In this document: positions 1 to 3,000 of the stretch, piece after piece
How the letters are laid out: each line of letters starts with the position of its first letter
How positions within the stretch are numbered: position 1 is the stretch's first letter
Source of the DNA: Escherichia coli
GTDB taxonomy: Bacteria; Pseudomonadota; Gammaproteobacteria; Enterobacterales; Enterobacteriaceae
Direction: 5' to 3' (one strand)
DNA: 3,000 nt
NCBI RefSeq assembly: GCF_003334385.1
Contig: NZ_QOWN01000097.1
Made by a program: the position numbers and the translations under genes
The notes under the pieces: model-generated
Databases searched by the model: none
The model's input: only the letters and a program-made list of their open reading frames with translations
What the model was told of the DNA's origin: nothing

Positions 1-3000
1 ACGCTGGCGCGGCTGTGGGGGGCGCTGCCGCCGGATATCCGGTTAAGCCCGCATCTTTACCTGGCGACCAACAGCGCACAGGGGCCGTGGTGGATACTGG
101 GGTGGTCTGAGCGGGTGCCGGGTGCTGAGGACGTACTGCCAGCGCCGCTGCCGCCGTACCGGGTGCTTACCGGGATGGCGGACCGCTTCGGGCGGACGCT
201 GACGTACCGGCGTGAGGCCGCCGGTGACCTGGCCGGGGAAATCACCGGCGTGACGGACGGTGCCGGGCGGGAGTTCCGTCTGGTGCTGACCACGCAGGCG
301 CAGCGTGCGGAAGAGGCCCGCACCTCTTCGCTATCTTCTTCTGACAGTTCCCGCCCTCTCTCAGCCTCAGCGTTCCCCGACACACTGCCCGGTACCGAAT
401 ACGGCCCCGACAGGGGTATCCGCCTTTCGGCGGTGTGGCTGATGCACGACCCGGCATACCCGGAGAGCCTGCCCGCTGCGCCACTGGTGCGGTACACGTA
501 TACGGAAGCCGGTGAACTGCTGGCGGTATATGACCGCAGCAATACGCAGGTGCGCGCTTTCACGTATGACGCGCAGCACCCGGGCCGGATGGTGGCGCAC
601 CGTTACGCGGGAAGGCCGGAGATGCGCTACCGCTACGACGATACGGGGCGGGTGGTGGAGCAACTGAACCCGGCAGGGTTAAGCTACCGCTATCTTTATG
701 AGCAGGACCGCATCACCGTCACCGACAGCCTGAACCGGCGTGAGGTGCTGCATACAGAAGGCGGGGCCGGGCTGAAACGGGTGGTGAAAAAAGAACTGGC
801 GGACGGCAGCGTCACGCGCAGCGGGTATGACGCGGCAGGAAGGCTCACGGCGCAGACGGACGCGGCGGGACGGAGGACAGAGTACGGTCTGAATGTGGTG
901 TCCGGCGATATCACGGACATCACCACACCGGACGGGCGGGAGACGAAATTTTACTATAACGACGGGAACCAGCTGACGGCGGTGGTGTACCCGGACGGGC
1001 TGGAGAGCCGCCGGGAATATGATGAACCGGGCAGGCTGGTATCGGAGACATCGCGCAGCGGGGAGACAGTACGCTACCGCTACGATGACGCGCACAGTGA
1101 GTTACCGGCGACGACAACGGATGCGACGGGCAGCACCCGGCAGATGACGTGGAGCCGCTACGGGCAGTTGCTGGCGTTCACTGACTGCTCGGGCTACCAG
1201 ACCCGCTATGAATACGACCGCTTCGGCCAGATGACGGCGGTCCACCGCGAGGAAGGCATCAGCCTTTACCGCCGCTATGACAACCGTGGCCGGTTAACCT
1301 CGGTGAAAGACGCACAGGGCCGTGAAACGCGGTATGAATACAACGCCGCAGGCGACCTGACTGCCGTTATCACCCCGGACGGCAACCGGAGCGAGACACA
1401 GTACGATGCGTGGGGAAAGGCGGTCAGCACCACGCAGGGCGGGCTGACGCGCAGTATGGAGTACGATGCTGCCGGACGTGTCATCAGCCTGACCAACGAG
1501 AACGGCAGCCACAGCGTCTTCAGTTACGATGCGCTGGACCGGCTGGTACAGCAGGGCGGCTTTGACGGGCGGACGCAACGTTATCATTATGACCTGACCG
1601 GAAAACTCACACAGAGTGAGGATGAGGGACTTGTCATCCTCTGGTACTACGATGAATCGGACCGTATCACTCACCGCACGGTGAACGGCGAACCGGCAGA
1701 GCAGTGGCAGTATGATGGCCACGGCTGGCTGACAGACATCAGCCACCTGAGCGAAGGCCACCGTGTTGCCGTCCACTATGGCTATGACGATAAAGGCCGC
1801 CTGACCGGCGAATGCCAGACGGTGGAGAACCCGGAGACGGGGGAACTGCTGTGGCAGCATGAGACGAAACACGCATACAACGAGCAGGGGCTGGCAAACC
1901 GCGTCACGCCGGACAGCCTGCCGCCGGTGGAGTGGCTGACGTATGGCAGCGGTTACCTGGCGGGAATGAAGCTGGGCGGGACGCCGCTGGTCGAGTATAC
2001 GCGGGACAGGCTGCACCGTGAGACGGTGCGCAGCTTCGGCAGCATGGCAGGCAGTAATGCCGCATACGAACTGACCAGCACATACACCCCCGCAGGCCAG
2101 TTACAGAGCCAGCACCTGAACAGCCTGGTATATGACCGTGACTACGGGTGGAGTGACAACGGCGACCTGGTGCGCATCAGCGGCCCGCGACAGACGCGGG
2201 AATACGGCTACAGCGCCACGGGCAGGCTGGAGAGTGTGCGCACCCTCGCACCAGACCTGGACATCCGCATCCCGTATGCCACGGACCCGGCGGGCAACCG
2301 GCTGCCGGACCCGGAGCTGCACCCGGACAGTACACTCACAGTGTGGCCGGATAACCGCATCGCGGAGGATGCGCACTATGTCTACCGCCACGATGAATAC
2401 GGCAGGCTGACGGAGAAGACGGACCGCATCCCGGCGGGTGTGATACGGACGGACGACGAGCGGACCCACCACTACCACTACGACAGCCAGCACCGCCTGG
2501 TGTTCTACACGCGGATACAGCATGGCGAGCCACTGGTCGAGAGCCGCTACCTCTACGACCCGCTGGGACGGCGAATGGCAAAACGGGTCTGGCGGCGGGA
2601 GCGTGACCTGACGGGGTGGATGTCGCTGTCGCGTAAACCGGAGGTGACGTGGTATGGCTGGGACGGAGACAGGCTGACGACGGTGCAGACTGACACCACA
2701 CGTATCCAGACGGTATACGAGCCGGGAAGCTTCACGCCGCTCATCCGGGTCGAGACAGAGAACGGCGAGCGGGAAAAAGCGCAGCGGCGCAGCCTGGCAG
2801 AGACGCTCCAGCAGGAAGGGAGTGAGAACGGCCACGGCGTGGTGTTCCCGGCTGAACTGGTGCGGCTGCTGGACAGGCTGGAGGAAGAAATCCGGGCAGA
2901 CCGCGTGAGCAGTGAAAGCCGGGCGTGGCTTGCGCAGTGCGGGCTGACGGTGGAGCAACTGGCCAGACAGGTGGAGCCGGAATACACACCGGCGCGAAAA
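1..3000 (+). CDS. Rhs family protein (RHS/YD-repeat polymorphic toxin core), internal fragment; both the start and the stop lie outside the window
   Basis: Frame +1 is uninterrupted by stop codons for all 1000 codons (my manual translation, line by line). The translation carries many copies of the Rhs/YD motif (Y-x-Y-D-x-x-G-R-L/V), e.g. [13 protein letters not shown] (nt 625-663), [12 protein letters not shown] (1207-1242), [13 protein letters not shown] (1267-1305), [10 protein letters not shown] (1582-1611), [12 protein letters not shown] (1777-1812), [14 protein letters not shown] (2377-2418), [12 protein letters not shown] (2548-2583). The window starts [20 protein letters not shown] and ends ...[15 protein letters not shown], with [26 protein letters not shown] at 2737-2814. 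GC content is high with GC-rich third positions, as known for Rhs cores. Paralog (rhsA/B/C/D-like) cannot be determined from the core alone, so the gene symbol is left empty. Confidence 0.95.
490..2694 (+). repeat. YD-repeat (RHS repeat) array at the protein level within the Rhs CDS; about 25-28 degenerate units of roughly 20-25 residues, not a nucleotide tandem repeat
   Basis: Recurring Y-x-Y-D / YD-x-x-G-R-L motifs in frame +1, at approximately aa 164-178, 189, 209-221, 229-238, 276-286, 318-326, 340-346, 359-362, 403-414, 423-435, 445-453, 468-473, 488-496, 509-516, 528-537, 549-556, 571-577, 593-604, 709-726, 735-745, 793-806, 825-836, 850-861 and 885-898. Unit boundaries are approximate and read by eye. 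Confidence 0.75.

Follow-up and report, generated by a model that had tools for sequence, protein, structure and literature searches.

An internal fragment of the Escherichia coli Rhs gene rhsD, its DUF4329/Tox-JAB-2 tip and the adjoining immunity gene ybbC

Results

The rhsD core

The 3,000-nucleotide (nt) stretch of Escherichia coli DNA analysed here (contig NZ_QOWN01000097.1; hereafter the window) is an internal part of rhsD, a gene for an Rhs polymorphic toxin. An earlier reading of the window from its letters alone (the original prediction) had recognized an Rhs core and had placed a variable toxin tip and an immunity gene, if present, just downstream. A megablast search of 5426 complete E. 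coli genomes placed the window, which corresponds to codons 154–1153 of the 1426-codon gene, that is, to 1000 residues of the internal YD-repeat shell. Frame 1 (+ strand) has no stop in its 1000 codons, and the remaining five frames carry 8–43 stops each. The closest match is rhsD of strain SCU-104, with 3000 of 3000 nt aligned and one synonymous mismatch at nt 723; K-12 MG1655 differs from the window at 4 nt, one of which changes an amino acid, so that identity to the two genomes is 99.87–99.97%. The changed residue lies at window nt 989 (codon 330, RhsD residue 483, in AVV[Y/S]PDG) and is Tyr in the window and Ser in K-12. Sequence beyond the window was read in the SCU-104 locus (L001), in which a window position is the L001 position minus 10000.

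The open frame, the SCU-104 alignment and a match to the NCBIfam model RHS_core (NF041261) all identify the whole of the window (1..3000, + strand) as conserved core. The RHS_core match, at 2787 bits (cut-off 2000), spans RhsD residues 1–1258, and YD_repeat_2x matches RhsD with an E value of 1.1e-46. The window ends at residue 1153 and the RHS_core model runs on to 1258, in agreement with the claim that the window stops within the core. The 21-residue landmark cited near the window end was found at nt 2752–2814 (codons 918–938). The string DP.GL, said to be missing, is indeed absent from all six frames of the window, the sole DPxG strings being DPAGN (nt 2284) and DPLGR (nt 2557).

As read in SCU-104, the core ends 105 codons (315 nt) beyond the window. 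These last codons (L001 13001–13315, + strand) carry the TIGR03696 match at the 3′ end of the core (E 3.3e-23) and the motif pair DPMGL-X17-DPMGL, which equals the DPXG-X18-DPXG(L) motif defined previously (PMC10684867) and lies 235–315 nt past the window end. The first DPMGL begins at residue 1232 (L001 13235–13249), and the second closes the string PLQQIDPMGL at residues 1249–1258 (L001 13286–13315). The PxxxxDPxGL boundary expected downstream was therefore located 286–315 nt past the window in its closest genomes, which differ from it by 1 and 4 nt. As had also been anticipated, GC content drops across the boundary: it is 0.633 for the core, 0.365 for the tip and 0.306 for ybbC.

Tip, immunity gene and orphan cassette

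Directly after the core, RhsD ends in a 168-residue tip of the DUF4329/Tox-JAB-2 family (PF14220; L001 13316–13822, + strand). The gene ybbC (122 codons; Imm-NTF2-2, PF15631; L001 13862–14230, + strand) begins 40 nt beyond the stop codon of rhsD and is the small, immediately downstream open reading frame (ORF) that had been foreseen as immunity candidate. An orphan copy, ylbH (L001 14230–14940, + strand), overlaps the ybbC stop and consists of 94 core codons and a 142-residue tip. The core part of ylbH is 88% identical in DNA to the end of the main core and has its own DPxGL pair; its tip differs from the main tip and has a weak serum-amyloid-A-like (SAA-like) Pfam match (E 1.3e-3). Two further ORFs on the + strand (L001 14921–15181 and 15214–15411) are remnants of ybbD that jointly match the 163-residue ‘YbbD’ profile; ybbD is a pseudogene in the K-12 annotation, and by sequence it is a candidate for a broken immunity gene. 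Thus the predicted tip, immunity gene and orphan cassette were all read just downstream in the closest genomes. The prediction had been tied to nt 2995–3000: as an indication of what lies beyond the window it was right, but those positions hold just the last two codons, Arg1152–Lys1153 (CGA AAA, + strand), and no feature of their own.

The expectation of novelty downstream fared worse. SCU-104 and K-12 share an identical sequence 3′ of the window, and the arrangement is base for base the K-12 rhsD-ybbC-ylbH-ybbD array, catalogued in 2012 as Tox-JAB-2/Imm-NTF2-2. The K-12 set (b0497–b0501) is the same gene at the same locus, differing by allelic single-nucleotide polymorphisms alone, and the locus is already known. 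An extension identical to a known tip with a known partner had been named as the finding that would speak against the original prediction; such identity holds for the catalogue, and does not extend to a biochemical characterization of the tip.

How widely the cassette goes with this core

Tip and ybbC occur in 1896 of the 5426 complete genomes, with at least 99% identity in 1892 records, and ybbC accompanies the tip in 1855 genomes. Their linkage to the core was sampled by two spread-sampled searches across the core/tip junction. All sampled records with a core identity of at least about 98.7% span both the tip and ybbC, and records that match the core only reach at most 98.2% in one search and 97% in the other.

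The orphan, SAA-like tip is present in 2863 genomes. In O157:H7 and O55:H7 a full-length Rhs gene at the rhsD locus has it as main tip, and in K-12-type strains the DUF4329/ybbC cassette looks to have displaced it.

Some strains have an rhsD locus broken by an insertion sequence (IS2 or IS1A), among them RM10410, NZ_CP080085.1 and NZ_CP145663.1. In RM10410 (NZ_CP042350.1, 577545–580580; 99.9% identical to the window) IS2 lies between core and tip and leaves a separate ‘DUF4329 domain-containing protein’ ORF. On an 86-kb plasmid (NZ_AP027905.1, 76651–76980), a gene of the ybbC type (‘NTF2 fold immunity protein’; 330 nt at 100% identity) is present and the toxin is absent. If, as may be, this copy is a free-riding immunity gene, it would imply that the tip of RhsD is employed in nature.

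Family, motif and fold of the tip

The RhsD tip matches Pfam DUF4329 with an E value of 5.6e-38 over model positions 2–114 of 116. The conserved E, H[ST]H, S and D motif described for Tox-JAB-2 (PMC3482391) is present as E1311, H1356-T-H1358, S1372 and D1375, and its residues are kept in 114–116 of 116 homologues. These diverse homologues came from an exhaustive search of representatives; a word-indexed search returned close relatives alone. By the fold test the tip has a JAB/MPN (deaminase-like) fold, and its closest structural matches are isopeptidases and not RadC. A sequence search of the Protein Data Bank (PDB) gave no solved structure for either the tip or YbbC, and a profile search of the PDB with the tip returned chance zinc-finger matches alone (E ~0.5).

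Two cysteines of the tip, Cys59 and Cys87, show strict co-occurrence: 50 homologues have both, none has Cys59 alone, 16 have Cys87 alone and 49 have neither, in a count that ignores phylogeny. Six cysteines are aligned between the tips of RhsD and its paralogue RhsB. We also considered secretion of stand-alone DUF4329 proteins as an indicator of where the domain acts; a signal-peptide-like start was found in 3 of 66 short DUF4329 proteins, and the indicator was dropped because the matches are mostly Rhs fragments from short contigs.

Immunity partners and their export signals

YbbC matches Imm-NTF2-2 (‘NTF2 fold immunity protein’) with an E value of 6.8e-26, and the Tox-JAB-2/Imm-NTF2-2 pairing was catalogued in 2012 by Zhang et al. 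(PMC3482391). The N-terminus of YbbC, MKYSSIFSMLSFFILFA↓C, fits the PROSITE-type lipobox rule; the lipoprotein-type signal, ending FILFA↓C with Asn at +2, lies at L001 13862–13915, 862–915 nt past the window end. In YhhH, the partner of RhsB, and in three homologues from further afield, a charged stretch opens the N-terminus, a hydrophobic one follows, and the end is TWA↓Q or GWA↓N/D. These are sites of the signal-peptidase-I type, that of YhhH lying at L003 4900–5000. These calls are hydropathy and pattern heuristics and do not come from a trained predictor.

We then compared 10 distant loci in which an Rhs/YD protein has a DUF4329 tip at its end. The ORF directly 3′ of the terminal tip has a signal-peptide or lipoprotein-type start in eight of the ten (L004, L005 and L008–L013). 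In L006 the signal-type start is on the second gene and not the first, and in L007 there is none and the neighbour looks spurious; both were scored as negative. Genes of the Imm-NTF2-2 family adjoin DUF4329 tips in four of these loci (L005 2840–3184, L008 1479–1811, L009 2851–3132 and L012 2552–2884); environmental metagenomes, freshwater among them, are represented in the four, clearly so in two. The 2012 catalogue listed Imm-NTF2-2 as E. coli only (PMC3482391); since four distant partners belong to it, the family is not restricted in this way.

The N-terminus and the upstream side

Codons 1–153 of rhsD (L001 9542–10000) lie upstream of the window, whose 5′ edge (1..3, + strand) is codon 154. 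The N-terminal fragment of RhsD is 47 residues long and holds a literal KPAAR, and it is followed by a plug domain, DUF6531 (Pfam; residues 46–123, E 1.2e-18). In alignment, P48 of RhsD (P48-VNPLLGAK) falls on the opening residue of the shell chain of Tse5 from Pseudomonas aeruginosa (PDB 8cp6, PVNPMLGSK). In Tse5, a 47-residue PAAR-like N-terminal fragment (Tse5-NT) is required for secretion and is cut at K47↓P48, ahead of a DUF6531 plug (PMC10684867). The RhsD N-terminus is short like Tse5-NT and is without a transmembrane module for entry into the cytoplasm. The layout of this end of RhsD equals that of Tse5-NT. Similarity to PAAR proteins, which had been suggested for the N-terminal region, stays below significance: Pfam PAAR_motif gives a weak match (E 0.14), and the terminal repeats of the PDB PAAR proteins 9rce_c (E 0.1) and 4jiv_D (E 0.51) align weakly with RhsD residues 2–29.

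No vgrG, Eag or type VI secretion system (T6SS) gene was found within 9.5 kb upstream, and none is adjacent. The expected vgrG or T6SS neighbour is replaced by ybbP (L001 6697–9111), and the 9.5 kb hold ybbP, ybbA, tesA, ybbO, cnoX and fetAB. Downstream, beyond the cassette, lie a ylbG remnant, mnmH/selU and allS. This gene context fits the ‘neighbourless’ class of Rhs genes described in a review. Between ybbP and rhsD is an AT-rich spacer of 430 nt (L001 9112–9541, 459–888 nt before the window) with 25–32% GC, far under both of its neighbours. Regions of this kind are usually silenced by H-NS, and this could account for the viability of ybbC mutants.

Comparison with known systems

The closest paralogous cassette is RhsB/YhhH of K-12, in which the core is 77%, the tip 52% and the immunity protein 50% identical to the RhsD/YbbC counterparts. 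The cysteines noted above and the JAB motif are aligned between the two, and both immunity proteins have hydrophobic N-termini. The cassettes differ in their site (nikR-rhsB for RhsB) and in the export signal, which is the signal-peptidase-I-type TWA↓Q in YhhH and a lipobox in YbbC.

Among solved Rhs shells, Tse5 is the best homologue of RhsD (E 1e-121), followed by Pseudomonas protegens RhsA (E 1.4e-85); further solved homologues are Tse15, Salmonella bongori Rhs and Tre23. The Tse5 shell encloses the tip, and its N-terminal fragment is without a membrane-translocation module; an aspartyl protease formed by D1141 and D1164 cuts after a Leu four residues beyond the second Asp (PMC10684867). 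On sequence, RhsD appears to share the N-terminal piece, P48, the YD shell, the DPXG-X18/19-DPXG pair and the Leu cut with Tse5. However, the Tse5 tip is an inner-membrane pore-former whose gene is linked to vgrG, whereas the RhsD tip is of the JAB fold and its gene has no such link.

With the Tox-JAB-2/DUF4329 and Imm-NTF2-2 catalogue, RhsD/YbbC agrees in Pfam family, motif and partner family alike. The PAAR-RhsA-DUF4329 proteins of Salmonella pathogenicity island 6 (SPI-6) have 1593 residues, ~170 more than RhsD, and have CdiI-type partners. Identity between the RhsD tip and the isopeptidases of the JAMM/MPN+ group (BRCC36, AfJAMM, PfJAMM1, Rpn11, AMSH, CBASS Cap3 and BilC) is 9–20%, and the tip differs from them in its extra N-terminal helices and cysteine pairs. 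We know of no ubiquitin-like substrate in the periplasm.

Other features of the window

A charged, non-YD segment of the core (2752..3000, + strand) opens with the 21-residue landmark. It is ~70% identical to RhsB, without gaps, and we rejected it as an oddity, its conservation in RhsB making it ordinary E. coli Rhs core. A Ser-rich, low-complexity patch at 322–372 coincides with a local reversal of GC skew. This candidate was likewise set aside on the comparison with RhsB. RhsB has a 5-residue deletion and different residues there, and from this the patch is read as a surface loop of the core that varies.

Antisense ORFs of 240–353 residues run through the core on the − strand (window 2101–2958 and 1294–2016; L001 12101–13162), those inside the window reaching 285 residues, and one minus-strand frame has just 8 stops per 1000 codons. 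Most likely these are a by-product of a GC-rich, repeat-rich coding frame and not genes.

Discussion

We suggest, with a probability of about 85% for the account as a whole, that the window belongs to a polymorphic Rhs toxin gene, rhsD, at the chromosomal ybbP-rhsD-ybbC locus, and that its shell, tip and orphan cassette have the following roles. By analogy with Tse5, RhsA and Rhs1, the shell would enclose the tip. An aspartyl protease made up of D1232 and D1254 would, as in Tse5, cut at L1258↓L1259 and free the tip within it. The 47-residue PAAR-like piece, cut before P48, would mount RhsD on the VgrG spike in strains that bear a T6SS. Once delivered, the tip would be a Zn-dependent hydrolase of the JAB/MPN type, most likely a peptidase or isopeptidase, acting in the periplasm or envelope of the target cell. 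YbbC, an exported NTF2-fold binder and probably a lipoprotein, would shield sibling cells. The orphan ylbH/ybbD pair would be a displaced former tip of the rhsD locus.

Where the tip acts is the more tentative part of this account. We put close to an even chance on the tip being a periplasm-acting Zn peptidase or isopeptidase that is neutralized by exported YbbC; what is left beside the nuclease considered below goes to some other activity or to an inactive tip. We favour the periplasm because export signals mark the partners in E. coli and in eight of the ten distant loci, because Cys59 and Cys87 co-occur, and because RhsD has no N-terminal translocation module. Possible targets are, for example, the stem peptides of peptidoglycan or the isopeptide-like bonds between Lpp and peptidoglycan. 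Transposon insertions in ybbC cut the fitness of K-12 in trimethoprim, in a screen that also returned the envelope genes ldcA, waaS and wbbK (PMC8767339), and this phenotype might relate to a role in the envelope.

Several points weigh against these proposals. No exact match to the window was found among the 5426 complete genomes by a substring test, and for this reason the flanks had to be read from near-identical relatives; in one of the relatives, RM10410, IS2 separates core and tip. The absence of vgrG, Eag and T6SS genes from the neighbourhood and the weak PAAR match do not favour delivery on a spike. The evidence for a periplasmic site is subject to the neglect of phylogeny in the cysteine count and to the heuristic nature of the signal-peptide calls. 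Moreover, the partners of the Salmonella SPI-6 Rhs-DUF4329 proteins have a CdiI domain and no signal peptide by SignalP 6, and the literature files DUF4329 tips as nucleases or RNases (PMC3482391 among the sources). Finally, K-12 survives transposon insertion in ybbC, and therefore the RhsD toxin must be silent in, or harmless to, its producer there.

The last of these points leads to the strongest competing explanation, namely that rhsD is an undeployed relic, either silent or an intracellular toxin-antitoxin (TA)-like module, and not an interbacterial weapon. To our knowledge K-12 has no T6SS, and since it is absent there, the RhsD toxin would be undeliverable in such strains. A relic would fit the lack of T6SS genes at the locus, the AT-rich spacer upstream (25–32% GC), the viable ybbC mutants and the decay of the orphan immunity gene ybbD, and according to one study (PMC7043789) Rhs elements have a TA-like role in Salmonella. 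Nevertheless, the 1426-codon ORF, the catalytic residues and the immunity gene are intact at 99% identity or more in ~1900 genomes, and the toxin-less copy of ybbC on a plasmid (H115) is what one would expect if the toxin were used in nature. In addition, a review relates the neighbourless E. coli Rhs-CT genes (those for Rhs proteins with C-terminal toxin tips) to the T6SS2-associated Rhs family. We therefore regard a relic as unlikely, though it is the best of the alternatives to a deployed, polymorphic toxin.

A somewhat less probable alternative takes the literature label at face value: the tip would be a nuclease or RNase that works in the cytoplasm, and YbbC would act either there or at the inner membrane. 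DUF4329 Rhs effectors have been listed in surveys of enterohaemorrhagic E. coli, Shiga toxin-producing E. coli and Salmonella. In the searchable literature we found no experiment behind the RNase or nuclease label for DUF4329, none on the toxicity of RhsD-CT or its neutralization by YbbC, and no biochemical report on metal-dependent hydrolysis by the tip. As one review relates the work of Ma et al. (2017b), CT1, CT3 and CT5 alone were tested experimentally, and a preprint of 2024 states that the activity and substrate of DUF4329 are unknown. The nearest structural matches of the tip are isopeptidases rather than RadC. Exported partners, in E. coli and in eight of ten distant loci, are at odds with an RNase as the toxin that they neutralize, and a co-varying pair of cysteines in the tip and an RhsD N-terminus without a transmembrane translocation module also speak against action in the cytoplasm. 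We consider it doubtful that the tip is a nuclease.

It is very improbable that, in the source strain, no DUF4329 tip follows in frame and the gene has another one (e.g., the SAA-like tip of O157:H7) or is interrupted instead: the tip at the rhsD locus does vary by lineage, RM10410 has its IS2 and no collection genome is identical to the window, but at 99.87–99.97% identity the window lies well within the range (at least ~98.7%) in which all sampled records carry the DUF4329 tip and ybbC, and above the 98.2% or 97% that core-only records reach.

Returning to the polymorphic-toxin account, its first consequence is a sober one. Because the sequence unseen in the window is the K-12 reference arrangement, there is no new toxin or immunity family past the window edge. 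The RhsB-CT/RhsD-CT family has been in the K-12 genome for decades, with the activity of its tips being a matter of prediction from sequence. We propose, with somewhat less than even confidence, that DUF4329/Tox-JAB-2 tips, including RhsD-CT and RhsB-CT, are periplasmic Zn-dependent JAB peptidases or isopeptidases that are blocked by exported NTF2-fold proteins, and are not RNases. T6SS surveys have taken the ‘RNase’ annotation over from one another; it is probably wrong, and the target is probably in the cell envelope. Our doubt about the label arises because the JAMM motif and fold are intact, the partners are exported, the tip has its cysteine pair and RhsD has no module for entry into the cytoplasm. 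If this is true, DUF4329 tips would be the first JAB-fold interbacterial toxins that target the envelope, and a label that is spreading through T6SS surveys would be corrected.

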